Shown here piece after piece: positions 3 through 12,398 of a stretch of 12,398 nucleotides of DNA (within the stretch, counting starts at the first letter, position 1; each line of letters begins with the position of its first letter). Location of the stretch: assembly GCA_016934095.1 (NCBI GenBank), contig JAFGTO010000244.1:1-12398 (forward strand), read 5' to 3'. The position numbers and the translations under genes are program-made. The stretch is from Candidatus Glassbacteria bacterium (GTDB lineage Bacteria; Gemmatimonadota; Glassbacteria; GWA2-58-10). The notes below the pieces were generated by a model. It saw nothing but the letters and a program-made list of their open reading frames with translations, had not been told where the DNA came from and did no database searches.

Positions 3-1916
3 TTCCGCAGCAACCGGAAGAACCTCGACCGGATGCTGTACAGCAAGGGAGCCGCCCTGATGGAGTCGGTGCTGCACGACGCTGAGAACGCAGTGCTTGC
101 AGAGCGCGAGATCTCGGAACAGCTCGCCTCCCGCCTGGCGGATAACGCCAGGTACGCCCTGATGCTGGCCGACCGGGGAGCGCAGGCCGGGCGGTCGCTG
201 GCAGCCGCGGCCGCGGAGAACGGGCTGGTCCGCCTGGAGGTGTACGGTCCGGACGGGGGACTGATCGCAACTAGCGACCCGCGCGGCTCACCCGGAATGC
301 TGCCCGCATCCCTGGATGGCCTGGCCGCCGGGGATGAGCCGCTTATCAGGCTGATCCAGGACCCGGCGGGATCCGGGAACGAGCTCCTGGCGGCCGCCGT
401 GCGGGGTGGGGACGGCCGGGCGGGAGTGGCCTATGCCCTGTCGGATGAGCTCTTCGCGCTCCAGCGCCGGCTGGGAATCGGCCTGATCCTCGACGACCTC
501 TCCGCAGTGGAGGGGGTGGCTTACGCCGTGCTCCAGGACACTCTGGGGATCATCGCGGCCTCGAGCGACGTGGTGGAAATCGGCAGTATCGGCAAGGACC
601 CGTTCTTCCCCCTGGCCGCCGGGGAGATCAAGGGGCGCCGCCTGGATTTCTTCGGCGAGGAGGTCTACGAGCTGGCCGCCCTGTTCCAGCTCGGCGGCGA
701 GAGTTTCGGTTACCTGAGGGTCGGGCTCTCGACTGAAGAAGTACGCTCGATTGCCGAGCTGGACCGCAAGAGGTTCGGTTTCGGCATGGCGGTGCTGGCC
801 GTGCTGGCCGCGGTGGCTGTGCTGCTCTACTTTTTCCGCCTCCGCCACCTGCACCTGGAGCAGGAGCACTCGCGCATCAAGAGCTTCTCGGACAGCGTGC
901 TCGAATCCATGGGCGATGCGGTGATTGTCGCCGACCGGGACGGCAGGGTCCTGCTGGTCAACCGTGTCGCCGAAAAGCTATGCGGCACCGACCGGCCGCC
1001 CCTGCCGGGCCGCATGCTCTCGGAGGTGGCTCCCGGCCTGGCGGAAAAGCTCGGAAGCCTGGACACAGATGAGCCGCTGGTCTTGGAGACCGAGCTGCCC
1101 CGGCCCGGCTCTGCAGGACCGCTGCCCGTGCTGGCCACCGCCTCACCCTTATTGGTTGCCGGCAGCCGCTACACTACGGTTATCCTGCGCGACCTGACCG
1201 ACCGCAAGCGCGCCGAGGAGCTGGCCCTGCGCAACGAGAAGTACCAGGTCATGGCCGAGGTCTCGGCCTCGGTGGCCCACGAGATCCGCAACCCGCTCAA
1301 CGCGATCGGGATGAATGTCCAGCGCCTCAAGATGGAGTTCACCCCGCAGGAGGGGAGCCGGGGAGAATACGAGGAGTTCATCGAGATAATCCGCCGCGAG
1401 GTGGAGAGGATCAACGGGATAGTCGAACAGTACCTGACCCTGGCCCGTTTCCCCGGGCCGAAAAAAGAAATGGCGAGGATCGACAGGCTGCTGGCCGATA
1501 CCCTGCAGTTTTTCGCTGCCGAGCTCGCCGGGCGGCGGATCGCGGTGAAAGCGGATATCGCGCCCGCCGGGCCGTTCCCTTTCGATCCCGGGCAGTTGAG
1601 ACAGGTTTTCACCAACCTGATCAAGAACGCCGCCGAAGCCATTGAAAGCGAGGGGACCCTGCTGGTGGCCGGACGCCCGCTGCCGGGGTACTACCAGGTC
1701 TCCGTGCAGGACAGCGGCCCCGGGATCCCCGCAAGCGTGCGGGACAAGGTTTTCGAGCCGTTTTTCAGCACCAAGCAAAGTGGGCTGGGTCTTGGATTGG
1801 CCATTGTCCAGCGCATTGTCGCCGAGCACGGGGGTAATATATCCCTGGAAAGCAGCGGCCGGCCGGGGACCACTTTCGTGGTCACCCTGCCTGCAGACAA
1901 GGAGGATAAAACATGA
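3..1916 (+). CDS. Sensor histidine kinase (periplasmic sensor domain, TM, PAS, HisKA, HATPase_c); 5' end probably truncated by the window edge
   Basis: Frame is open from base 3 and the first in-window Met is at 33. There is no RBS before 33 and no N-terminal TM, so the true start is probably upstream. TM segment FGFGMAVLAVLAAVAVLLYFF. PAS-like SVLESMGDAVIVADRDGRVLLVN. H-box SASVAHEIRNPLNAIGMNVQRL. N-box LIKNAAEAI. G-boxes QDSGPGIP and GLGLGLAIVQRIVAEHGG. Strong GC3 codon bias. Confidence 0.85.
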   Translation, partial: FRSNRKNLDRMLYSKGAALMESVLHDAENAVLAEREISEQLASRLADNARYALMLADRGAQAGRSLAAAAAENGLVRLEVYGPDGGLIATSDPRGSPGMLPASLDGLAAGDEPLIRLIQDPAGSGNELLAAAVRGGDGRAGVAYALSDELFALQRRLGIGLILDDLSAVEGVAYAVLQDTLGIIAASSDVVEIGSIGKDPFFPLAAGEIKGRRLDFFGEEVYELAALFQLGGESFGYLRVGLSTEEVRSIAELDRKRFGFGMAVLAVLAAVAVLLYFFRLRHLHLEQEHSRIKSFSDSVLESMGDAVIVADRDGRVLLVNRVAEKLCGTDRPPLPGRMLSEVAPGLAEKLGSLDTDEPLVLETELPRPGSAGPLPVLATASPLLVAGSRYTTVILRDLTDRKRAEELALRNEKYQVMAEVSASVAHEIRNPLNAIGMNVQRLKMEFTPQEGSRGEYEEFIEIIRREVERINGIVEQYLTLARFPGPKKEMARIDRLLADTLQFFAAELAGRRIAVKADIAPAGPFPFDPGQLRQVFTNLIKNAAEAIESEGTLLVAGRPLPGYYQVSVQDSGPGIPASVRDKVFEPFFSTKQSGLGLGLAIVQRIVAEHGGNISLESSGRPGTTFVVTLPADKEDKT

Positions 1917-3268
1917 AAAGCCACCGTATCCTGGTGGTGGAGGACGAGGAGAACCAGCGCCGCACCCTGGCCGGTTTCCTGAGGAAAAAGGGTTACCGGA
2001 CCGAAGAGGCCCCTTCCGGGGAGGCCGCCCTGGAGCTTGTCCGCAAGCACCTTTACGACCTGGTCCTGACCGACCAGAAAATGGGGGGCATCGGCGGCCT
2101 GGAGCTGCTCAGGGAGGTCAAGGCCGCCAACCCGGAAATCGAGGTGGTCCTGCTGACCGCCTTCGGAGACCTCCGCTCCGCGGTCCAGGCGGTCCGCCAG
2201 GGCGCTTTCGACTACCTGGCCAAGCCGGTGGACCTGGAAGAGCTGGAGCTGACCCTCGAGCGGGCCCTGGAGCGCAGGCAGCTCGTGGTGGAAAACCGGA
2301 TGCTTCGCGAGTCGCTCGGCGAGCGGCAGAGCTTCGAGGAGATCATCTCCGTCAGCGATGCCATGGAGTCTGTGCTCAACATGGCTTCCCGGGTGGCCCG
2401 GGTCGACTCTCCCGTGCTGATCACCGGGGAGTCCGGCACCGGCAAGGAGATGGTGGCCAAGACGATCCACCAGGCCAGCGTGCGCAGGGACCAGCCTTTC
2501 GTGGCGGTAAACTGCGCCGCCCTGAACCAGAACCTCATCGAGAGCGAGCTGTTCGGCCACGAGAAAGGGGCCTTCACCGGCGCCATCCGTCAGCGCCAAG
2601 GCAAACTCGAGTCCGCCGACAGGGGGACCCTGTTCCTCGATGAGCTCGGGGAGATCAGCCCCGAGATCCAGGTTAAACTGCTGCGCTTTCTCCAAGAGCA
2701 CTCGTTCGAGCGGGTCGGCTCGGACCAGGTGCAGCAGGCGGACGTGCGCCTGATCGCCGCTACCAACCGCGACCTGGAGGCAGCCATCCGTCAGGGCGAT
2801 TTCCGCGAAGATTTCTACTACCGGATCAACGTGGTCAATATCCAGATCCCGCCCCTGCGCTCGCGCAGGGAGGACATCCGCCCGCTGATTGATTTCTTCC
2901 TGCAGAGAAACCGCGAGCGTCTCGGGCCGAAGACCTTCTCCAGGCAGGCGCTCGACTCCCTGCTGCGCTACGATTTCCCGGGAAACATCCGGGAGCTGCA
3001 GAACGTGGTCGAGCGGGCCATGGTGCTGGCCAGGAACGAGGTGGTCGACCTGGCCGACCTGCCCCCCTCGGTCACTGCCAGACAGGATAACTTTCCCGGT
3101 GTCCGCGAAATCGGCGGCTCGCTCACCGAGGAGATAGAGAACCTGGAAAGGCGCATGATTACCGCCGCCCTGGAATCCTGCGACAAGGTTCAGGTGCGGG
3201 CCGCGGAAAAGCTGGGAATCACGGAAAGGAACCTGCGCTACAAGATGAAAAAGCTGGGAATCAAATAA
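1913..3268 (+). CDS. Sigma-54-dependent response regulator, NtrC/AtoC/ZraR family (REC + AAA+ sigma-54 activator + Fis-type HTH)
   Basis: Start ATG 1913 overlaps the kinase stop TGA 1914-1916 (ATGA coupling), with a GGAGGA RBS at 1901-1906. REC domain with phospho-acceptor LVLTDQKMGG. Walker A GESGTGKE. GAFTGA motif ESELFGHEKGAFTGA. Walker B/arginine-finger region. C-terminal HTH AAEKLGITERNLRYKMKKLGI. Confidence 0.9.
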   Translation: MKSHRILVVEDEENQRRTLAGFLRKKGYRTEEAPSGEAALELVRKHLYDLVLTDQKMGGIGGLELLREVKAANPEIEVVLLTAFGDLRSAVQAVRQGAFDYLAKPVDLEELELTLERALERRQLVVENRMLRESLGERQSFEEIISVSDAMESVLNMASRVARVDSPVLITGESGTGKEMVAKTIHQASVRRDQPFVAVNCAALNQNLIESELFGHEKGAFTGAIRQRQGKLESADRGTLFLDELGEISPEIQVKLLRFLQEHSFERVGSDQVQQADVRLIAATNRDLEAAIRQGDFREDFYYRINVVNIQIPPLRSRREDIRPLIDFFLQRNRERLGPKTFSRQALDSLLRYDFPGNIRELQNVVERAMVLARNEVVDLADLPPSVTARQDNFPGVREIGGSLTEEIENLERRMITAALESCDKVQVRAAEKLGITERNLRYKMKKLGIK

Positions 3269-3446: not shown

Positions 3447-3461
3447 TGGCACCGTTCTTGA
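3447..3461 (+). promoter_or_regulatory. Sigma-54 (-24/-12) promoter candidate
   Basis: TGGCACC-GTTC-TTGA matches TGGCACG-N4-TTGCW. The GG and GA(C) elements have the exact 10-nt spacing, with only the -12 C replaced by A. It lies about 75 bp upstream of ATG 3537, directly downstream of a sigma-54 activator gene. Confidence 0.55.
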
Positions 3462-3536
3462 TTAAGGTAAGGGTGCGCGCATCGATTTTATCTTTCGCAG
3501 TATCAGCTTACCTTTAAAGAGCAGAGGAGGTGCCGG

Positions 3537-4388
3537 ATGAAAACCCTGAAAATTCTGCCGGTAATCACTTTTATCGGCGCATTGATGACTTTGAATCCCG
3601 GACTGTACGCCCAGGATGCCGATGACGCAGCCGCGGACGATGGGGCCGCTGTAGCGACGCCCCTGGGCGGAGCCTACCGCCACGGCATGAGGGATGTCGG
3701 GTTCCGCGGCTTTACCGACGAGGACGGCAACGGGCTCAACGACTATCTAGAGGACTCGGACGGCGACGGGGTGGTCAACGCCCACGACCCGGACAGCGAC
3801 CTTTATCGCGGCGAGCCGGGTACGGCTCTGGGACGCGGCCTGGGCTTCGTGGATGAGGACGGCAACGGGCTCAACGACTATCTAGAGGACTCGGACGGCG
3901 ACGGGGTGATCAACGCCCACGACTCCGACAGCCCGCTCTACCGCGACCCCCGCGCCAGGGGCGCTTTCGGGCGCGGCCTGAGCTTTGTGGATGAGGACGG
4001 CAACGGGATCAACGACCGTCTCGAGGACTCGGACGGCGACGGGGTGATCAACGCCCACGACCCGGACAGCCCGCTCTACCGCGACCCCAGCGCCAGGGGC
4101 GTTTTCGGGCGCAGGCTCCGCTTCATCGATGAGAACGGCGACGGTGTCAGCGACTGCCTCGAGGACTCGGACGGCGACGGGGTGATCAACTCCCTCGACC
4201 CCGACAGCCCGCTGTATCGCGGCAGCGCGGCCGGGAACACGGTCAGGGGCGCACGCCTCGGCTCGGCCGGCAAGACTGTCATGCAGCGCGGGTCGGCTTT
4301 CAGCGGACAGTCGCGCTCTACCGGAAGGGCAAGAGTGAGAACGCCCGGGAGCTGCACAACCGCTCCCGCCGGCAGCGGCAGCAATTAA
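3537..4388 (+). CDS. Secreted acidic repeat protein with tandem DxDxDG (thrombospondin type 3 / EF-hand-like) calcium-binding loops
   Basis: RBS AGAGGAGG at 3524-3530. Signal peptide MKTLKILPVITFIGALMTLNPGLYA|QD. About 3.7 copies of a 45-46 aa unit EDGNGLNDYLEDSDGDGVINAHDPDSPLYRDP.ARGAFGRGLSFVD. Each unit carries two back-to-back 12-residue loops, DEDGNGLNDYLE and DSDGDGVINAHD, fitting DxDxDGxxDxxE/D. Confidence 0.8.
   Translation: MKTLKILPVITFIGALMTLNPGLYAQDADDAAADDGAAVATPLGGAYRHGMRDVGFRGFTDEDGNGLNDYLEDSDGDGVVNAHDPDSDLYRGEPGTALGRGLGFVDEDGNGLNDYLEDSDGDGVINAHDSDSPLYRDPRARGAFGRGLSFVDEDGNGINDRLEDSDGDGVINAHDPDSPLYRDPSARGVFGRRLRFIDENGDGVSDCLEDSDGDGVINSLDPDSPLYRGSAAGNTVRGARLGSAGKTVMQRGSAFSGQSRSTGRARVRTPGSCTTAPAGSGSN
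3720..4217 (+). repeat. In-frame tandem DNA repeat, 135-138 bp unit, about 3.7 copies, inside CDS 3537-4388
   Basis: Units begin at 3720, 3855, 3993 and 4131 with GAGGACGGCAACGGG...GAGGACTCGGACGGCGACGGGGTG(A/G)TCAACGCCCACGAC. Copies 1-3 are nearly identical at the nucleotide level and copy 4 is more diverged. Confidence 0.85.
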
Positions 4389-4464: not shown

Positions 4465-5136
4465 ATGGGTAAAAGAATTACATACGGCGCGGCAGTGGCG
4501 ATTTTTCTTTTTTGCGGCACTCTTTCCGCACAGCAGGAAAAGGCCCGGCCGGAGACTCGGAAATCAACGGTCCAGCCCGGCGGGTCCGCAGCCCAAAAAG
4601 CAGCCGACAATAAAGAACCCCAGACGCCTGTCGCCGTATTCGGCTTCCAGGACCGGGACCGCGACGGCAAGAACGACCTGTTCCGGGACGCCGACGGCGA
4701 CGGGATCAACGATATCACCAAGAAACCCTACCCTCACAAGTTCAAGTTCGCAGATGAGGACGAGGATAAAATCAACGACTTGTTCGTGGATGCCGACGGC
4801 GACGGGGTGAACGACCTTGAAGTCAAGTTTATCGATGCCGACAGCGACGGGATCAACGACAATATCATCGATGTCGACAAGAACCATATCAACGACATCA
4901 CCGGCCTGCGCTATACCAGCAAGTCCCTGCGGGGGTACAAGTACGGTTTTATCAAGGAGGAGCGCCTGCTGATGATGCGCGGCTTCATCGATGAAGACGG
5001 GGACGGGATCGCGGATGCACCCCGGGGCATGATGCTCAGAAAAGGCATGCGCGACCGGATTATCGACCGGGACGGCGACGGGATCGACGACAGGAGGGAG
5101 ATGATGCGCAAATTCAGACCAGGACCCAGGAGATAG
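4465..5136 (+). CDS. Secreted paralogous DxDGDG-loop repeat protein (degenerate Ca-binding loop repeats)
   Basis: Signal peptide MGKRITYGAAVAIFLFCGTLSA|QQ. Loops DRDRDGKND, DADGDGINDI, DEDEDKINDL, DADGDGVNDL, DADSDGINDN, DEDGDGIADA, DRDGDGIDDR. Codon composition is more AT-rich than the first paralog. Ends TAG 5134-5136, 3 nt before the next start. Confidence 0.75.
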   Translation: MGKRITYGAAVAIFLFCGTLSAQQEKARPETRKSTVQPGGSAAQKAADNKEPQTPVAVFGFQDRDRDGKNDLFRDADGDGINDITKKPYPHKFKFADEDEDKINDLFVDADGDGVNDLEVKFIDADSDGINDNIIDVDKNHINDITGLRYTSKSLRGYKYGFIKEERLLMMRGFIDEDGDGIADAPRGMMLRKGMRDRIIDRDGDGIDDRREMMRKFRPGPRR

Positions 5137-5139
5137 GCA

Positions 5140-6405
5140 ATGAAAAAATTCGGCTTGCTAGGCCTGATACCGCTTTTCCTCTGGGCCGGGATGCTCCGGG
5201 CCCAGAAAGAAGTCAGCGTGGGGACCCACATGCTGGCTGACGACAATATCTTCCGCAACCACACAGGACAGGGCGACTTTGTCGCTGTACCTTACGCCGA
5301 CCTAGGCTACCAGTTCAGTCCCGGCCAGGACACGGAGACACTGGACCTGTTCTACCTAGGCTATTCAGGGCAGTTTTTCCTTTTCCGCGAGCTGAGCCGG
5401 AGGGACTTCTCCGTGCACGGCTTCTCCGCACACTACAACCACCTCTGGCCCGAGTCGCGCAACCTGCTCGCTGTCGGCGGCAAGGTGGAAACCAGGCTCA
5501 ACCCGGAAGACTACAAGTATTTCAACTATACCTCGGGCGGATTTTACCTGAACTACAAGAGATACCTCAGGGAAGACCTGATGCTGCTGGCCGGGTACAA
5601 CCTTACCGGCAAGAACTTTTCCGAATTCCCGGAGTTCAATTACCTGGAAAACATCTTTTCCATCCAGACCAGCCTGTTCCTGCAATCCAGGACCACCCTG
5701 CGGTTTTCCGCCAATTACTACCACAAGAACTACCTCAACAGTATCTCTACTCTGGACTCGGTTTTTGTCGAGCCGCCCCCGGTTTCCGGGCCCATGCCCG
5801 GCATGGGCTATGGATACGGCCGCGGGATGTTCCTCAGGAACCTGTTCCCGGAGGATGTTGGCGAAGGTTTCTACTCGTACCGCATGCGTGCCGATGAATT
5901 CCCCAGCACCGACCAGTTCAAGCTGGGTTTCACAGTGGCCCAGGGCCTGGCCGAGGGCACGGGGATCACCGCGGGCTACACCGCCCGGCTCAACCCCCGC
6001 AACCGCAACCGCTACCTGTCCAACCTCGGCGAATCGGTGCTGAACAATGAAGAGCTTTTCGACGACCACTACAGCTACCTGGGCCACGAGGGCACTTTGC
6101 AGCTCAAGCAAATGCTGCCTGCAGAGTCGATACTGACCCTGATGTTCACCGTGCGCAGCCGCCGTTTCAGCGACCGGCCAGCCCTGGACCTCGAGGGCTA
6201 CCCGCTGCCCTCCGGAGAGGACCGGCGGGACAGGGCTGTGCTTTTCGAGGCCGAGTTCACCAAGCGGCTCAGGCCCGGCATTTCCTGGATCACCGACAAC
6301 CTCGAGCTCTCGGTCGGGTTCGGCCTGGGCAGCAACAGCTCGAACGACCAGTATTACGATTTCAACGACAAATATTTCATTTTCGCCCTGGAAAAAGCCT
6401 TCTAG
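5140..6405 (+). CDS. Putative outer-membrane beta-barrel protein (no heme motif)
   Basis: RBS AGGAGA at 5126-5131. Signal peptide MKKFGLLGLIPLFLWAGMLRA|QKE. High Tyr/Gly/Asn/Ser content with alternating aromatic/hydrophobic patterning typical of amphipathic beta-strands. C-terminus ...YFIFALEKAF ends in Phe as in Bam-dependent OMPs. Co-transcribed with the two repeat proteins. Confidence 0.7.
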   Translation: MKKFGLLGLIPLFLWAGMLRAQKEVSVGTHMLADDNIFRNHTGQGDFVAVPYADLGYQFSPGQDTETLDLFYLGYSGQFFLFRELSRRDFSVHGFSAHYNHLWPESRNLLAVGGKVETRLNPEDYKYFNYTSGGFYLNYKRYLREDLMLLAGYNLTGKNFSEFPEFNYLENIFSIQTSLFLQSRTTLRFSANYYHKNYLNSISTLDSVFVEPPPVSGPMPGMGYGYGRGMFLRNLFPEDVGEGFYSYRMRADEFPSTDQFKLGFTVAQGLAEGTGITAGYTARLNPRNRNRYLSNLGESVLNNEELFDDHYSYLGHEGTLQLKQMLPAESILTLMFTVRSRRFSDRPALDLEGYPLPSGEDRRDRAVLFEAEFTKRLRPGISWITDNLELSVGFGLGSNSSNDQYYDFNDKYFIFALEKAF

Positions 6406-6563: not shown

Positions 6564-6669
6564 TTAACAGAGCCGCAAAAATGACCTCCGGGCCCGCCCT
6601 CTCGAGCCCGGCGCCAAATACTTTCAGGCGAAGACATCCTTGAACCTGCCCATCAGAGAGGAGTTTTCC

Positions 6670-7038
6670 ATGAGCAGTACTTATCATGAACCATCCCAGG
6701 AGCTGCCTCCGGAAGTCCGCGATACCCATCGCGCACTGGCGAGCCTGATCGAAGAGCTGGAGGCTATCGACTGGTATAACCAGCGGGCCTCTCTCACCAC
6801 CGACCCGGAGCTCAAAGAGATTGTCCAGCACAACCGGGACGAGGAAATCGAACATGCGGCCATGGCCCTGGAATGGCTGCGCAGGAGGATCCCCAAATTC
6901 GACGAGGAACTGAAGACCTACCTGTTCTCTTCCGGCCCCATTACCGAAATAGAAGAAGCCCTGGCAAAAGAACCTGCTGAAAACGACGCGCCGGCCCCGG
7001 GCAGCCTGGGAATCGGCTCGCTGCGAAAGGAGAGCTGA
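6670..7038 (+). CDS. Encapsulated ferritin-like protein (EncFtn) with C-terminal encapsulin cargo-loading peptide
   Basis: RBS AGAGGAG at 6654-6660, 9 nt before ATG 6670. The track start at 6640 is a TTG with no RBS, so 6670 is preferred. EncFtn signature EELEAIDWYNQRA...DPELKEIVQHNRDEEIEHAAMALEWLRRR (metal-binding Glu/His residues). C-terminal tail ...PGSLGIGSLRKES matches the GSLxIGSLK-type encapsulin targeting peptide. The stop lies 2 nt before the shell gene. Confidence 0.85.
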   Translation: MSSTYHEPSQELPPEVRDTHRALASLIEELEAIDWYNQRASLTTDPELKEIVQHNRDEEIEHAAMALEWLRRRIPKFDEELKTYLFSSGPITEIEEALAKEPAENDAPAPGSLGIGSLRKES

Positions 7039-7040
7039 CG

Positions 7041-7841
7041 ATGAGCGACATTCTGCGACGTTCACTGGCTCCGCTGACGGAAGCCGCCTGGAAGGAAATC
7101 GACAGGACGGCCTCGAACATCCTCAAAGCAAGCCTCACCGGGCGCAAGCTGGTTGACTGCGACGGGCCCCACGGCCTGGAGCTGGGTGCGGTGAACCTGG
7201 GCCGCCTGGCAATCCCCGAGAAACATAAGAGGGCGGGTGTAAGCTGGGGCGTGCGCGAGGTGCTGCCGCTGGTGGAGTTACGGGTACCCTTCCAGCTCGA
7301 CCAGATGGAGCTGGACTCGATCTCCAGGGGCTCGAAGGATGTCGACCTGGGTCCGCTGGAAAAAGCCGCCAGGGCAGTGGTCGATTTCGAGGAATCCGCA
7401 ATCTACAAAGGCTTTCCGGAGGCCAGGGTCCAGGGCATACTCAAAGCCGCAAAACACGCCCCGCTCAAGATCCCCGCCGCACGCGAAGACTGCCCCAAGG
7501 CCGTGGCCGAGGGGATCAAGCTGCTGTCCGAGGCGGGAATCGAGGGGCCTTACGCGCTGGTCCTCTGCCTGGAGTGCTACCATGAGCTGATCGCCACCGC
7601 CAAGGGATACCCTACTTTCCGGGTGGCGGAGCGCCTGGTGGAAGGCGGGATATTCTACAGCAGCGCCCTCAAGGGCGGCGTGCTGCTGTCCGTGCGCGGC
7701 GGAGATTTCGAGCTGACCCTGGGCCAGGATATCTCCATCGGCTTCTCGGGCTGCACCGCGGACAAAGTGGAGCTCTATTTTGCCGAGTCTTTCACTTTCC
7801 GCGTGCTGGAGCCGCTGGCCGCTGTCGAGCTGAAACCCTGA
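7041..7841 (+). CDS. Family 1 encapsulin nanocompartment shell protein (HK97 fold; Linocin_M18 family)
   Basis: RBS AAAGGAGAG at 7026-7034. Sequence is collinear with the T. maritima encapsulin: LRRSLAPLTEAAWKEID, GRKLVDCDGPHG, WGVREVLPLVELRVPFQL..ELD..RG..DVDLGPLE, GIEGPYALV, RGGDFELTLGQDISIGF, ESFTFRVLEP. The 266-aa length is typical. Confidence 0.9.
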   Translation: MSDILRRSLAPLTEAAWKEIDRTASNILKASLTGRKLVDCDGPHGLELGAVNLGRLAIPEKHKRAGVSWGVREVLPLVELRVPFQLDQMELDSISRGSKDVDLGPLEKAARAVVDFEESAIYKGFPEARVQGILKAAKHAPLKIPAAREDCPKAVAEGIKLLSEAGIEGPYALVLCLECYHELIATAKGYPTFRVAERLVEGGIFYSSALKGGVLLSVRGGDFELTLGQDISIGFSGCTADKVELYFAESFTFRVLEPLAAVELKP

Positions 7842-7899
7842 CCCCGCGGTATAATCAGGGAACGGGCGCCGGACGGACTTGGACCGTTTGTTTACCCGA

Positions 7900-7935
7900 G
7901 GGGCACATTTATGCATGTGCCCCATTTTATTCTCC
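7900..7935 (+). terminator. Rho-independent terminator after the encapsulin operon
   Basis: GGGGCACAT-TTATGC-ATGTGCCCC (9-bp stem, 6-nt loop) followed by ATTTTATTCT, about 60 bp after stop 7841. Confidence 0.6.
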
Positions 7936-8111: not shown

Positions 8112-9473
8112 ATGCGATCAGCCCGTAAAGTCTTAGCTGTCGTTGTCATTGGCACGGTTGTGGCGGGAGCGGGCTTACTGGCCCAGGTCAAGGCAGGCGA
8201 CGCCGCCCATGGCACCAGGCAGTACGACCAGTATAAAAAACCCAAGTTCTGCGGTACTTCCTGCCATACCGACTTCTATCGCCAGTGGCGCCAGGAGATG
8301 CACTCCCAGGCCTATGTCCACCACTGGGACGAGATCGAGTATTTCAAGCTGGCCGTGCCCCACGCGGAAAAAGACCCGGCCGTGGCCGGGGTCAGGGATG
8401 GCTGTAATGGCTGCCATGCGCCGGTGTCTTTCCTGGCGGGCGACACCCCTCCGCCCAGGCCCGAGGAAAACAGCCGGGCCAACGAAGCTGTCACCTGCGA
8501 CCTGTGCCATACTATCACCGGTTTCGAGTCAGACACTCCCCACAACTTCAACTATTATTCCGAGCCGGGGAACGTGAAATACGGGCCCAGGGGCGGGGTA
8601 ACCTCTCCTGAGCACGTGATCGAGGTCAGCAAGTTCCTGCCTTCCGCAGAGTTCTGCGGCACCTGCCATAACGAGAAAAGCCCTTACGGGGTATGGGTCA
8701 AATCGACCCACCTCGAGTGGAAGGAAGGGCCTTACGCAGCCGAGGGAGTCCCCTGCCACGACTGCCACATGCCAAGGGCCGAGGGCAGGAGGGCCTCGAT
8801 GGGTAAGGCCTACCCGGACATCCGTCAGCACCTGTTCCACGGCGCTCACGACAACGGCAAGATCAGGGGCACGGTGGAGCTGCGCATCCACCCGGATATC
8901 GATGAGACCGAGCCGGGCGAAAAAGTGGTCTTTACCGTGGTGCTCTTCAACCAGAAAGCCGGCCACAAGTTCCCCACCGGCTCGGTGGAGGACCGGATTG
9001 TCTGGCTGCATGTCGAGGCCACCGATGCCCAGGGCAAGGTCTATCACCTGCCGGTGGACCCCAAGGGTTTCGAGGGGGAAGAGTATACGATCGCCCGGGA
9101 CGTCCTGGCCTACCAGGACATGGGCATAGCGCTGAACGACCCCGGCTTCCAGGGCGTGCAGCGGGATGGGGTCCCGGTGGGAGACCGTATTTTCCGCATG
9201 CCCTATTTCGACCCCCAGGGCCGGATGACGATCCAGCAGTGGAACACCAAGAGCCTGGGTGTAGACTACCGGATACCCCCCAGGGGTACCAGGGTGGAGA
9301 CTTTCTCCTTCAGCCTGCCGTTCGAGGTCGCCCCGGGCAGGATGACTGTCGAAGCCACGCTCAACTACAGCAAGCTGGTCAAACCGGTGGCAGAGCTGCT
9401 CGAGGTGCCGCCGGATGAAACTGAAACAGTTGTGGTCAACGAGCATTCTACCGTAATCAACGTATTCGACTGA
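8112..9473 (+). CDS. Multiheme c-type cytochrome (five heme-binding motifs) with a C-terminal heme-free, probably beta-sandwich, domain
   Basis: Signal or anchor peptide MRSARKVLAVVVIGTVVAGAGLLAQVKA. Heme motifs CGTSCH (CX3CH), CNGCH, CDLCH, CGTCH and CHDCHMP. The GVPCHDCHMPRAEG segment resembles the NrfA-family CxDCHMP heme, but the family's distal heme is missing. The last about 200 aa are Cys-free. Confidence 0.85.
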   Translation: MRSARKVLAVVVIGTVVAGAGLLAQVKAGDAAHGTRQYDQYKKPKFCGTSCHTDFYRQWRQEMHSQAYVHHWDEIEYFKLAVPHAEKDPAVAGVRDGCNGCHAPVSFLAGDTPPPRPEENSRANEAVTCDLCHTITGFESDTPHNFNYYSEPGNVKYGPRGGVTSPEHVIEVSKFLPSAEFCGTCHNEKSPYGVWVKSTHLEWKEGPYAAEGVPCHDCHMPRAEGRRASMGKAYPDIRQHLFHGAHDNGKIRGTVELRIHPDIDETEPGEKVVFTVVLFNQKAGHKFPTGSVEDRIVWLHVEATDAQGKVYHLPVDPKGFEGEEYTIARDVLAYQDMGIALNDPGFQGVQRDGVPVGDRIFRMPYFDPQGRMTIQQWNTKSLGVDYRIPPRGTRVETFSFSLPFEVAPGRMTVEATLNYSKLVKPVAELLEVPPDETETVVVNEHSTVINVFD

Positions 9474-9483
9474 AGAAGGAAAA

Positions 9484-10665
9484 ATGAAAAAAAAGACGTT
9501 TTACACCCTGGTCTTTTCCCTGGCGGCCGCCGGTCTGTGTTCCATCTTTACGGCCGAGTCCGCCTATGCTGTCCCGGCTTTCGCCAGGAAATACCGGCTG
9601 AGCTGCAAGACCTGCCACCAGCCGATCCCCAGGCTGAAACCTTATGGGGATGAATTCGCCGGCAACGGTTTCGTGCTCACCGACCAGGAAGCGCCCAGGT
9701 ATTTTGTCGAGACCGGGGACGACGAGCTCTCGCTGATCCGGGATTTCCCCATCGCCGTGCGCCTGGAAGGGTTCATCAACTACAACGACGTGGCGGGAAA
9801 AAGGTCGGACTTCAACACTCCATACCTGTTGAAGCTGCTCTCCGGCGGGGCCCTGACCAAAAACATCGCCTATTACTTCTATTTCTACATGGATGAGAGA
9901 GGAGAGGTGGCCGGTGTCGAGGACGCCTATGTCATGTTCAACAACCTGCTGGGAGTCGACCTGGATATCTACGCAGGCCAGTTCCAGGTCTCCGACCCCC
10001 TGTTCAAGCGGGAGCTGCGCCTGACCCTGGAGGACTACCAGGCCTACAAGTCCACTCCGGGCCGCTCGGGGATAAACCTGACCTATGACAGGGGTATCAT
10101 GGTAACTTACGGGTTGCCCAGCGGCACCGACCTGATTTTCGAGGTGGTCAACGGCAACGGCTTGAGCGAGGCGGACGAGGACAAGAACTTCGACTCCGAC
10201 AGGTACAAGAATTTCATGGGACGCATCTCCCAGGATGTCGGTAAATACCTGCGCCTGGGTGTGTTCGGCTACACCGGCCGGGAAAAGAGCGCCGGCCGGC
10301 TGAACCAGGCCTGGCTGGCCGGTCCCGACCTGACAGTGTCAATCAACGAAAAGTTCGAGCTGAACCTGCAGTATGTCGAGAGAAGGGACACCAACCCTTA
10401 TTTCCTCAGCTCCGGCTACCGGGACCTCAAGACCAGGGGCGCGCTCGGCGAGATGGTGATCGCCCCCCGGGGCAGCGACGGCAAGGTCTACCTGGTGGGG
10501 CTGTTCAACTGGACAGACTCGGACGACAATTCGGAGGATTTCAAGAGCCTGACCGGTCATCTCAGCTACCTGCTGCGCAGGAACATCCGTCTGGTCGGCG
10601 AGGTAACCCACAACTGGGCCAATGATACCAACCGCCTCGGCGTGGGTTTTGTCTCGGCGTTCTAG
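9484..10665 (+). CDS. cyc2: Cyc2-like fused monoheme cytochrome c-porin (outer membrane; candidate Fe(II) oxidase or extracellular electron conduit)
   Basis: RBS GAAGGAAAA, start 11 nt after the cytochrome stop. Signal peptide MKKKTFYTLVFSLAAAGLCSIFTAESAYA|VP. A single CKTCH heme motif lies within 15 residues of the mature N-terminus inside PAFARKYRLSCKTCHQP, which matches the conserved N-terminal cytochrome module of Cyc2. The remaining about 340 aa are rich in Tyr/Gly/Asn beta-strand patterning and end GVGFVSAF (terminal Phe), consistent with a porin barrel. The family assignment is from memory, not from a search. Confidence 0.6.
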   Translation: MKKKTFYTLVFSLAAAGLCSIFTAESAYAVPAFARKYRLSCKTCHQPIPRLKPYGDEFAGNGFVLTDQEAPRYFVETGDDELSLIRDFPIAVRLEGFINYNDVAGKRSDFNTPYLLKLLSGGALTKNIAYYFYFYMDERGEVAGVEDAYVMFNNLLGVDLDIYAGQFQVSDPLFKRELRLTLEDYQAYKSTPGRSGINLTYDRGIMVTYGLPSGTDLIFEVVNGNGLSEADEDKNFDSDRYKNFMGRISQDVGKYLRLGVFGYTGREKSAGRLNQAWLAGPDLTVSINEKFELNLQYVERRDTNPYFLSSGYRDLKTRGALGEMVIAPRGSDGKVYLVGLFNWTDSDDNSEDFKSLTGHLSYLLRRNIRLVGEVTHNWANDTNRLGVGFVSAF

Positions 10666-11063: not shown

Positions 11064-11546
11064 ATGGACGAACAGCCACAAGCCGAATCATTGGGAAAGG
11101 TCCGCAATCCTGTGGTCATGGTACTCCTGTTGATCATCACCATAAATATTTACTGGGTTGTCTGGCTGTACAAGATATATTCCGAGATTCGCAGGCGGTC
11201 CACCGATGTTACCGGTGTAACCCCGGGTAAAGCCGCCGGTTTTATCTTCATCCCGGTATTCAATATCTTCTGGGCGTTCTATATCATCGTGGATTTCCCC
11301 CGCGCCATCCGCCGTCTCCAGGAGGCCGACCCGCCCACCGGGAATCTCCTGAACAACTCTCTGGTAGTGATCCTGCTGATCGTGGGCTTGCTGATCAACA
11401 TTATTATTGCCCAATTCCAGCCTGCTTTCCTGCTGCTGGGCGAAATACTGCTGATTGCAGGTCTGCTGATGTCGCAAGAGGCCCTGAACGGCCATTGGCG
11501 GGCACATCAAGCCGCAGCGGGCGGGCCGGCGCCGGAGCAATCCTGA
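11064..11546 (+). CDS. Small polytopic membrane protein, DUF4234-like, with an internal duplication
   Basis: Strong RBS AAGGAGG at 11051-11057. Two homologous halves, NPVVMVLLLIITINIYWVVWLYKIYSEIRR and AAGFIFIPVFNIFWAFYIIVDFPRAIRR, each with an IY/IF-W-x-x-Y motif as in DUF4234-family proteins. Two further hydrophobic helices follow. Codon usage is markedly AT-richer than neighbouring genes. Confidence 0.65.
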   Translation: MDEQPQAESLGKVRNPVVMVLLLIITINIYWVVWLYKIYSEIRRRSTDVTGVTPGKAAGFIFIPVFNIFWAFYIIVDFPRAIRRLQEADPPTGNLLNNSLVVILLIVGLLINIIIAQFQPAFLLLGEILLIAGLLMSQEALNGHWRAHQAAAGGPAPEQS

Positions 11547-11851: not shown

Positions 11852-12398
11852 ATGACCCGGCTTACCCTGCGCATACCGGCGTTTTTGCTGCTGTTGCTGA
11901 CCGCTTTTCCCGGCATTGGCGAGCTTTCGGGGAAGGTGTTTTTCAGCGGCAGCTCCCAGTCTCTTTTCTACTACCTGGAAAACTACCCCGGCAGCGGCGG
12001 CCAGGGCTCGGTCTGCAATTTCAGGTCCTACGAGTCGGTGAGGATGAAGCTGGTCGGCAGGGGCAGCAAGAACAGCCTGGGTTTCCATACTTTTTTTCGC
12101 ACCAGCCAGGATCTGAATGTCGATTACGAAGAGGACCCGCTGCACCGCCTCTACAACGGCTACCTGGAGTGGATACACGGCCGCTTCAGCGCCGCCGCGG
12201 GCCGCCAGTGGCTGCACCTGGGAGTGGGGAGCCTCACCCTGGACGGGGCGAAAGTGAGCTATACGGACCCGCGCTATCTCGAGGTTACCGGCTACCTGGG
12301 CACGGAGAGTCCCTACACCCGACATTTCAGCCTCAGCGGTTGGGACAGGGCCAGGGCCGGGGGAGTCTACCTGAGCAGCAAAGCGCTCAAGCCGCTCA
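11852..12398 (+). CDS. Secreted protein of unknown function, 3' partial (runs off the window); possibly an outer-membrane beta-barrel
   Basis: Open + frame with strong GC3 bias. It is not in the ORF track because it has no stop in the window. Signal peptide MTRLTLRIPAFLLLLLTAFPGIGELSG. Tyr/Gly/Ser-rich alternating pattern (FFSGSSQSLFYYLENYPGSGG...). An alternative in-frame ATG at 11768 gives a poorer signal peptide. It overlaps and is preferred over the antisense track ORF 11627-12325. Confidence 0.55.
   Translation, partial: MTRLTLRIPAFLLLLLTAFPGIGELSGKVFFSGSSQSLFYYLENYPGSGGQGSVCNFRSYESVRMKLVGRGSKNSLGFHTFFRTSQDLNVDYEEDPLHRLYNGYLEWIHGRFSAAAGRQWLHLGVGSLTLDGAKVSYTDPRYLEVTGYLGTESPYTRHFSLSGWDRARAGGVYLSSKALKPL

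Follow-up and report, generated by a model that had tools for sequence, protein, structure and literature searches.

The locus studied here raises the question of what a multiheme cytochrome with an atypical set of heme motifs is, and which partner it serves. By the window we mean the whole 12,398-nucleotide stretch of DNA that was analyzed, contig JAFGTO010000244.1 (assembly GCA_016934095.1) of Candidatus Glassbacteria bacterium. Its forward strand carries, at 8112-9473, the gene for a c-type cytochrome with five hemes, followed directly by a gene for a fused monoheme cytochrome-porin of the Cyc2 type. We found that these two genes form an obligate two-gene module, and we consider it probable, on balance, that the pentaheme protein serves the Cyc2-type protein as its dedicated redox partner in the periplasm. 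The features of the pair are the following, in which the target clade denotes the clade of close homologs to which the pentaheme protein belongs and Ig-like denotes immunoglobulin-like.

8112-9473, forward strand: pentaheme c-type cytochrome gene, an open reading frame (ORF) of 453 residues with the PHC / c552 / ExtKL fold
8112-8183, forward strand: probable Sec signal peptide, residues 1 to ~24 (MRSARKVLAVVVIGTVVAGAGLLA), without a lipobox Cys, as read by eye
8250-8267, forward strand: heme 1, CGTSCH (CX3CH), residues 47-52; C47, G48, C51 and H52 invariant in 119/119 sequences of the target clade
8403-8417, forward strand: heme 2, CNGCH, residues 98-102, invariant
8496-8510, forward strand: heme 3, CDLCH, residues 129-133
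8655-8669, forward strand: heme 4, CGTCH, residues 182-186, part of a NapC/NirT-like di-heme stretch (residues 174-226)
8754-8774, forward strand: heme 5, CHDCH, residues 215-219 (nucleotides 8754-8768), with M220-P221; M220 invariant
8862-9470, forward strand: heme-free Ig-like beta-sandwich domain, residues ~251-453, from modelled strands and Foldseek
8961-8996, forward strand: G284-H285-x-x-P288-T-G-S..R295 loop in the Ig-like domain, invariant across the superfamily
9484-10665, forward strand: Cyc2-type fused monoheme cytochrome-porin gene, 393 residues, 10 nt 3' of the pentaheme gene
9568-9636, forward strand: Cyc2 signature AVPAFARKY-RLS-CKTCH-QPI-PRL, by the criteria of Keffer et al. 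2021

The pentaheme gene and its Cyc2-type neighbor

The product of 8112-9473 is identical to a protein from a Candidatus Glassbacteria metagenome-assembled genome that carries the annotation "NapC/NirT family cytochrome c". Five heme motifs in 453 residues are far beyond chance; all 10 Cys of the protein lie within them, no heme motif follows residue 219, and residues ~251-453 contain none. The CX3CH site at heme 1 and the heme-free C-terminal half had been described in the original prediction, and these sequence facts were correct. The signal peptide, whose cleavage site was read by eye from the sequence, falls in a poorly conserved region (mean maximum frequency 0.37), and a model made with AlphaFold2 (AF2) places an N-terminal helix within it, at residues 2-21. 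A secreted, soluble, periplasmic protein is the best explanation.

Relatives of the pentaheme protein are encoded in at least 547 species-level genomes, as judged from a scan that took one genome per species. Taxon labels, which were obtained for the best 80 loci, placed 45 of these in Ignavibacteria/Melioribacteraceae/"Bacteroidetes", 17 in Aminicenantes/Acidobacteriota, 8 among Clostridia-type genomes and 4 in Zixibacteria, with one each in Glassbacteria, Gemmatimonadales, Zhuqueibacter and Alphaproteobacteria and 2 unclassified.

Of 86 loci, 85 have the Cyc2-type gene directly 3' of the pentaheme gene and in the same orientation; at the lone unpaired locus the contig ends 188 nt past the pentaheme gene. 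In the paired lineages, every metagenome locus with enough downstream sequence had the partner as well (64/64), comprising 43 of 43 loci in which heme 1 is CX3CH and 21 loci of sister lineages in which it is CX2CH (51-67% identity). More distant relatives on metagenome contigs, at 49% identity or less, lacked the Cyc2 pairing. A reverse lookup that started from the partner found the pentaheme gene upstream in 2 of 2 cases, split by a frameshift as is typical of long-read assemblies. Within the paired loci the median gap between the genes, taken between high-scoring segment pairs, was 68 nt, and the two proteins have diverged together (Pearson r = 0.76 across 142 pairs). The pentaheme gene and the Cyc2-type gene are an obligate two-gene module.

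At loci L087 (3490-4946) and L088 (3659-4919), two long contigs which come from the same sequencing project, a frameshift splits the pentaheme gene into two ORFs; a long-read assembly error, not a pseudogene, is the most likely cause.

We found no description of a pairing of Cyc2 with a pentaheme, ExtKL or NirT protein in the literature searched, which missed most subscription journals. The fold family and Cyc2 are themselves known; what was not found there is the fixed module, how widely it occurs, and the variants (CX3CH and ligands) that are specific to the clade.

Adjacency in an operon might come without direct electron exchange, in which case the pentaheme protein would be a general periplasmic carrier or store for several partners. 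Its relatives in the PHC fold do occur in many contexts, and other multiheme cytochromes are encoded nearby in the sub-lineage to which the window belongs. Such a carrier would not be expected to stay attached lastingly to one gene, however, and the near-absolute synteny across several phyla, the short gaps and the joint divergence all make this account a decidedly improbable one.

The identity of the neighbor follows from published work on Cyc2, a fused monoheme cytochrome-porin that oxidizes Fe(II) and is recognized by AxPxFAR[Q/K][T/Y] upstream of a single CxxCH, PxL downstream, and a length of at least 365 residues (Keffer et al. 2021, PMC8406198). The spacing of this signature was the same in 7 of 7 partner orthologs examined, and FARKY...CxxCH was seen in nearly all of the metagenome loci. 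An AF2 model of the partner, with a predicted local distance difference test score (pLDDT) of 75 and a predicted TM-score (pTM) of 0.72, has exactly 16 long strands. Its top Foldseek matches are 16-strand porins, including OprP (2O4V) and OprO (4RJW) at E ~1e-11, and OprP and OprO are the structural templates reported for Cyc2. The protein ends in ...SAF, matches no Pfam or NCBIfam model, and is annotated as hypothetical everywhere. As judged from sequence and predicted structure, the product of 9484-10665 has the published features of Cyc2, and Fe(II) oxidation is a candidate activity only.

The pair shares the logic of the Cyc2 iron-oxidation pathway, in which a periplasmic cytochrome is needed to take the electrons of Cyc2 (compare Cyc1). 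The partners known for Cyc2 are class I cytochromes with one or two hemes, whereas the partner role here would fall to a pentaheme PHC protein with an Ig-like domain; FeGenie lists cyc1 as 'periplasmic cytochrome c4'. The hosts differ as well, in that they belong mostly to anaerobic or facultative heterotroph lineages (Ignavibacteria, Aminicenantes, Zixibacteria, Glassbacteria). Periplasmic multiheme cytochrome genes also adjoin outer-membrane barrel genes in the Mtr/Pcc systems (MtrAB/PioAB and the Geobacter Pcc) and in PtdA-PtdB. In Mtr/Pcc, however, a deca- or octaheme wire threads a heme-free barrel of 20+ strands, whereas the present system combines a 16-strand barrel that has a fused heme with a globular pentaheme periplasmic protein.

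The pentaheme protein belongs to the PHC fold

The sole significant sequence match in the PDB was 5ZE8, the pentaheme low-potential cytochrome c552 (LPC) of Thermochromatium tepidum. It was found by phmmer at E 3.3e-8 with both domains aligned (stretches 21-138 and 162-310) and by a profile search at E 6e-8. The AF2 model of the pentaheme protein, which was built from 34 close homologs and has a mean pLDDT of 52, is all-beta from residue 255 onward, with strands in 255-313 and 360-451 that are confident in parts (pLDDT 80-93). Foldseek with this model again returned 5ZE8 at the top, over the full length (E 1.3e-9), followed by Ig-like and beta-sandwich domains; the overall TM-scores were low because the heme domain is poorly modelled. 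Among NCBIfam models the best match was ExtKL (NF040886), at E 1.9e-16 and 59.7 bits against a cut-off of 250.

A "PHC family" has been proposed to join ExtKL, Gsu2801, the T. tepidum c552 and cytochromes of cable bacteria, and a trait of its fold is a Y-shaped packing of five hemes, four of them bis-His. The pentaheme protein belongs to this fold, with a five-heme N-terminal alpha-helical cap and a heme-free C-terminal Ig-like stem. Because five hemes and a heme-free C-terminal domain are normal in PHC proteins, the heme-free half is the stem and does not mark a lost heme. A canonical CxxCH at all heme sites is a further PHC trait, from which the protein departs at heme 1; we regard this as a variant feature and not as an exclusion.

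With 5ZE8 the protein shares the five c-type hemes in the N-terminal domain, an Ig-like domain at the C-terminus, the CH-x5-QW-x2-SMH helix that follows heme 1, and the 'H-x-x-P-T-G' loop, in which H285, P288 and R295 are unchanged in distant relatives as well. The differences are an overall identity of only ~19-25%, a heme 1 that is CANCH in 5ZE8, and, in the target clade, a larger Ig-like domain and the obligate Cyc2-type neighbor. The function of the 5ZE8 protein is uncharacterized in the literature.

The fold member whose chemistry is described is MccSep (= ExtKL) of Geobacter sulfurreducens, a tetrameric pentaheme selenoprotein that reduces polysulfide and consists of a five-heme alpha-helical cap with five CxxCH motifs and an Ig-like stem. 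Its heme 1 is the solvent-exposed entry heme, and its heme 2 is catalytic and ligated by His and Cys (C239), with a selenocysteine (U325) entering from the Ig-like domain (bioRxiv 10.1101/2025.11.18.688581). By analogy, heme 2 of the pentaheme protein may be the equivalent of this catalytic heme. The cap-plus-Ig-stem architecture with five hemes is common to both, ExtKL is the best NCBIfam match, and ExtKL gene clusters include an outer-membrane porin, ExtI, and so we asked whether the pentaheme protein could itself be a polysulfide (or selenite) reductase of this type. The features that define such an enzyme fail here. The score is far below the family cut-off; no Cys lies outside the heme motifs to act as a distal ligand like C239 or in place of U325 (the positions were not aligned); and no in-frame UGA interrupts ORF 8112-9473. 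The protein is therefore not an MccSep-type enzyme, a reading to which we give almost no probability. The partners differ as well, in that the barrel here has its own heme and ExtI has none. As for GSU2801, the large PHC protein of Geobacter, the literature gives only GSU2802 (DraT) as a neighbor in answer to the question of whether cyc2 lies beside it.

Cable-bacteria PHC proteins have been proposed, by analogy with the archaeal AvECN, to be subunits of a polymerizing cytochrome filament ('nanowire'), and the literature suggests a structural relationship between c552-type PHC proteins and AvECN. We think a filament very improbable for the pentaheme protein, which shows no sign of polymerization and carries an ordinary signal peptide, and whose gene is strictly coupled to that of an outer-membrane barrel; MccSep, moreover, is a tetramer and not a filament.

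The genomic contexts of other PHC genes are informative with regard to partners. Such genes adjoin porins in ExtKL with ExtI and in PtdA with PtdB. At L114 (1900-8538), and also at L091 and L107, a sister clade that is 46-47% identical to the pentaheme protein, carries CGMCH at heme 1 and has no Cyc2 neighbor lies in an operon with the order Fur-family regulator, rubrerythrin, pentaheme cytochrome, Tat-signal desulfoferrodoxin-domain protein, desulfoferrodoxin, ferritin and flavodiiron protein. The pentaheme gene of this clade directly precedes the gene for the Tat-exported protein with the superoxide reductase (SOR) domain, and this points to a superoxide-reductase system in the periplasm that a PHC cytochrome would supply. 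From the ExtKL-ExtI, PtdA-PtdB and sister-clade contexts we conclude that PHC genes adjoin the redox protein or porin that they presumably serve. Another distant clade (31-34% identity) has directly upstream a gene for a ~266-residue protein with a signal peptide, which ends in ...LKF and has no Pfam match (L122 2313-3122; L154 474-1274); it may be a small outer-membrane barrel.

The NrfA-like stretch around heme 5

The original prediction had taken the stretch 'CHDCHMP...AEG' to be NrfA-like, had considered the final CxxCH of that family to be absent, and had offered a remodelled catalytic cytochrome of the NrfA, HAO or sulfite type as one origin of the protein. It proposed profile searches against the NrfA, Hao and octaheme families; carried out in Pfam and NCBIfam, these gave no significant match. 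The Pfam NrfA model (PF02335) reached E = 2 in a permissive scan, at 7.7 bits against a cut-off of 24.1 and over residues 203-224 only, and no HAO or octaheme model appeared among the Pfam and NCBIfam results. NrfA chains appeared in the PDB sequence searches at E 0.1-0.6, none of them significant (E 0.18-0.56 for the HMMER alignment of residues 175-225), and none were among the Foldseek matches. The protein contains no CxxCK or other known open-site signature.

A much better match was obtained with PF03264 (NapC/NirT), at E 2e-10 and 41 bits against a cut-off of 24.1, in which residues 174-226 align with profile positions 31-79 of 174. NCBIfam models for NrfH (22.7 bits against 134.2) and TorC (18.4 against 455) stayed below their cut-offs. 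We read residues 174-226, on this alignment, as a NapC/NirT-like di-heme module and not as the architecture of the whole family. The local di-heme pattern C-x-x-CH...W-x-x-G/S...C-x-D-CH-M/x-P over these residues is shared with NapC/NirT/NrfH and with NrfA. The pentaheme protein, however, lacks the N-terminal membrane anchor and tetraheme architecture of NapC/NirT/NrfH, and all of these proteins, NrfA included, lack its Ig-like domain of ~200 residues.

There are points in favor of descent from a catalytic cytochrome of the NrfA/ONR/HAO type that lost its distal heme: the local match of W203-x-E-G-P-Y...G-V-x-C-x-D-C-H-M-P to the heme-3 region of NrfA, the COG that PtdA-type relatives share with NrfA, and a five-heme core in MccSep that superimposes on those of other multiheme enzymes. 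The match nonetheless covers just 22 residues in PF02335, and because the NrfA-like stretch is the fifth motif here, the order of motifs is not collinear with that of NrfA. The Pro of CHMP (Pro221) is present in 9 of 119 target-clade sequences, 'AEG' is not conserved, and the heme 5 motif of the clade as a whole is C[HQ]xCHM[T]. An absent final CxxCH presumes NrfA ancestry, when five hemes and a heme-free domain are the norm for PHC proteins, and 5ZE8 is the sole significant relative of solved structure, by sequence and by fold. The resemblance is thus local, and descent from such an enzyme, contradicted already at the level of sequence, is highly improbable.

A clade-specific CX3CH at heme 1

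The CX3CH motif at heme 1 was shared by each of the 120 close homologs, whose identity is 69-86%, and by every metagenome-recovered locus of the target clade, and the protein has no alternative Cys that could form a CxxCH there. A sequencing error, which the original prediction had named as an explanation to be checked, is excluded by this conservation; the motif is real and under selection. It is also as unusual as had been proposed. Among distant representatives with a scorable N-terminus we counted 52 with CX2CH and 11 with CX3CH, and 8 of the 11 are fragments of the target clade. The other 3 are independent (P0215, P0222 and P0249, proteins of ~430 residues in which heme 1 is CQEKCH, CKDNCH and CKEKCH), and the insertion therefore arose at least twice in the superfamily. 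Sister lineages, including P0121 at 63% identity, carry CxxCH at heme 1. From these alignments CX3CH appears as a clade-specific insertion of one residue into the heme 1 site. The alignment that the original prediction had named as refuting was thus found in part: the match to a known pentaheme family is confident, but it is not a family in which CX3CH is typical.

The target clade as a whole is distinct and, by its sequences, tightly conserved: across 119 sequences drawn from several phyla, 184 of the 453 positions show an identity of at least 97%. The Ig-like domain has clade-specific motifs of its own (HHWDEIEYF, HLFHGAHD, YQDMG, GDRIFR and QWNT). The suggestion of a new subfamily, made as an alternative in the original prediction, holds in this sense, in that the clade is both tight and marked by its own CX3CH.

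A second variation lies close by. Of 119 clade members, 110 have Met at residue 64, and the 9 others, among them the protein studied here, have His; the same 9 have Pro221, where the remaining 110 have Thr221. In distant relatives residue 64 is His, within the conserved "SMH" that follows heme 1, and we think that this position probably provides an axial ligand.

We considered CX3CH as a correlate of Cyc2 pairing and ruled it out, as the CX2CH sisters are paired too. It follows that the pairing predates CX3CH and that the insertion is a later modification. Having arisen within a lineage already associated with Cyc2, the insertion would therefore tune the terminal heme and not create the function.

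A probable periplasmic partner for the Cyc2-type barrel

In the mechanism that we propose, the pentaheme protein would dock on the periplasmic side of the Cyc2-type barrel and relay electrons between the single heme of the barrel and periplasmic or inner-membrane carriers, so that the pair would be a minimal electron conduit across the outer membrane. Heme 1, by analogy with MccSep, may be the solvent-exposed entry or exit heme, and the CX3CH insertion together with the His/Met variation may tune a terminal heme region that faces a partner. Electrons could flow inward, from the oxidation of Fe(II), or outward, to reduce Fe(III), humics or some other acceptor. In Proteobacteria Cyc2 oxidizes Fe(II), FeGenie lists cluster-3 Cyc2 as possibly reductive, and the host lineages have been reported, by gene content, as iron-oxidizing and iron-reducing alike.

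Several observations weigh against a simple relay. The interaction and the electron transfer are inferred, and the view of heme packing, ligands and heme 1 is weakened by an AF2 heme domain that is unreliable (pLDDT below 50). The pentaheme protein exceeds its partner in conservation in every one of the 142 pairs (mean identity 69% against 54%), and its Ig-like domain is as constrained as the domain that holds the hemes (conservation 0.85 against 0.84). Seven His other than the proximal ones are invariant (H70, H168, H240, H243, H246, H285 and H312) for five hemes, together with invariant Met and acidic residues; of the seven, only H285 is invariant across the whole superfamily. This constraint exceeds what is usual for a simple wire, and a catalytic or metal-binding site fits it equally well. 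The bis-His hemes of the T. tepidum PHC protein, finally, are reportedly low-potential, and such hemes, if present here, would argue against taking electrons from Fe(II).

These observations lead to the alternative that the pentaheme protein is an enzyme, in which the Ig-like domain contributes loops that complete a catalytic pocket around one of the hemes, probably heme 2, while the Cyc2-type barrel mainly admits substrate or supplies electrons. Candidate substrates include Fe(II), reactive oxygen species and an oxyanion of sulfur or nitrogen. MccSep, the sole characterized member of the fold, is an enzyme with an active site built by the Ig-like domain; the Ig-like domain here is extremely conserved, with a surplus of invariant His, Met, Asp and Glu, and the GHxxPTGS..R loop is invariant superfamily-wide. 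The sister clade sits in an operon for reactive oxygen and iron (rubrerythrin, SOR-domain proteins, ferritin and flavodiiron protein), and ferritin-like genes lie near the module in 14 of 152 paired loci. Yet the Cys ligand and Sec/Cys of MccSep are missing, all 10 Cys being taken up by heme motifs, and so is CxxCK or any other known open-site motif. The invariant His suffice for five bis-His hemes, and the association with ferritin-like genes is weak (~9%), with the encapsulin pair described below confined to this window. We regard an enzyme as possible but on the unlikely side.

A broader form of this idea is that the two genes encode a previously unrecognized, self-contained outer-membrane redox module in Ignavibacteria, Aminicenantes, Zixibacteria, Glassbacteria and their relatives, in which the pentaheme protein has a catalytic or metal-binding site formed by the Ig-like domain and the surplus His, Met and acidic residues. 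One example would be chemistry of Fe(II) or reactive oxygen in the periplasm, with the heme-porin as its supply route. We hold this reading to be rather doubtful. If a catalytic site were nevertheless present, it would represent a second, Cys/Sec-independent type of enzyme in the PHC fold and a new type of heme enzyme. A dedicated redox partner of the Cyc2-type protein remains the reading that we prefer.

The surrounding genes

Beyond the pair, the window contains the following features, each at one of its ends.

33-1916, forward strand: PAS histidine kinase (Pfam)
1913-3268, forward strand: sigma-54-dependent response regulator (Pfam)
11852-12398, forward strand: 5' part of a heme-free outer-membrane barrel gene, which leaves the window; 77% identical to L006 12847-14085

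Homologs of the kinase lie within ~6-8 kb of the pentaheme gene in 23 of 86 loci, and homologs of the regulator in 19 of 86. We infer that this two-component system may regulate the module in some of the lineages. The best sigma-54 promoter-like site, TGGCACCGTTCTTGAT, which has one mismatch, is found at 3447-3462, ~75 nt 5' of an Asp-rich repeat gene; it sits just 3' of the sigma-54 activator gene and not 5' of the cytochrome gene. We rejected sigma-54 sites as evidence of regulation, as the window holds 6 matches where 5.05 are expected, which is not above chance.

Two secreted Asp-rich repeat proteins, with DEDGNGLNDYLEDSDGDGVINAHDPDSPLYR-like repeats reminiscent of calcium-binding DxDxDG and with no Pfam match, are encoded at 3537-4388 and 4465-5136. 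At 17 of 86 loci a homolog of the first is encoded upstream of the module, and a related protein of 214 residues was present in 23 of 152. The next gene (5140-6405) encodes a 421-residue protein with a signal peptide and a C-terminus of ...EKAF, which has no Pfam or NCBIfam match and probably forms a barrel in the outer membrane. Its conservation upstream of the module extends to 13 of 86 loci, with 55-64% identity in L006 and L050.

An encapsulin operon occupies 6640-7841, where an EncFtn-type ferritin-like cargo gene (132 residues, TIGR04535) precedes a gene for a family-1 encapsulin shell (266 residues). The C-terminus of the cargo, GSLGIGSLRKES, resembles an encapsulin targeting peptide, and a GC-rich hairpin with a T-run follows the operon at ~7890-7930. 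We considered the encapsulin pair as a part of the module that would link it to iron and rejected it: the pair was found in 0 of the 86 other loci and is unique to the window, and ferritin-like neighbors of any kind occur at just 14 of 152 paired loci. Secreted ferritin-like DUF2202 proteins flank the module in 13 of the 152, at loci of the Ignavibacteria type (for example, L003 7266-7829, and L004 6842-7576 and 10787-11362).

On the 3' side, a membrane protein of 160 residues (DUF4328/DUF4234) is encoded at 11064-11546, between the Cyc2-type and barrel genes; it was not at the same position in the related loci examined. The barrel gene that leaves the window can be followed further in related genomes. 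In L006 (12847-16532), L007, L050 and L143 a barrel of 412 residues is followed by a protein of 300 residues with 12 CxxCH motifs and then by one of at least 493 residues, with a lipobox-like N-terminus and at least 17 CxxCH motifs in repeats of ~53 residues. A cluster of the classical porin-cytochrome type therefore follows the module in the window's own sub-lineage.

Implications

No genetic marker for microbial iron oxidation is used more widely than Cyc2, and the periplasmic route of electrons to or from it is poorly defined beyond a few Proteobacteria. A pentaheme partner encoded in hundreds of species-level genomes is a testable candidate for the periplasmic step of Cyc2 in non-proteobacterial lineages, and the pentaheme gene taken together with cyc2 would be a more specific two-gene marker than cyc2 alone. 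The natural series of CX2CH and CX3CH, and of His and Met, at defined positions offers material for studying how a terminal heme is tuned. For the PHC fold itself, the module would add a third context, after polysulfide reduction by MccSep and the c552 of T. tepidum.

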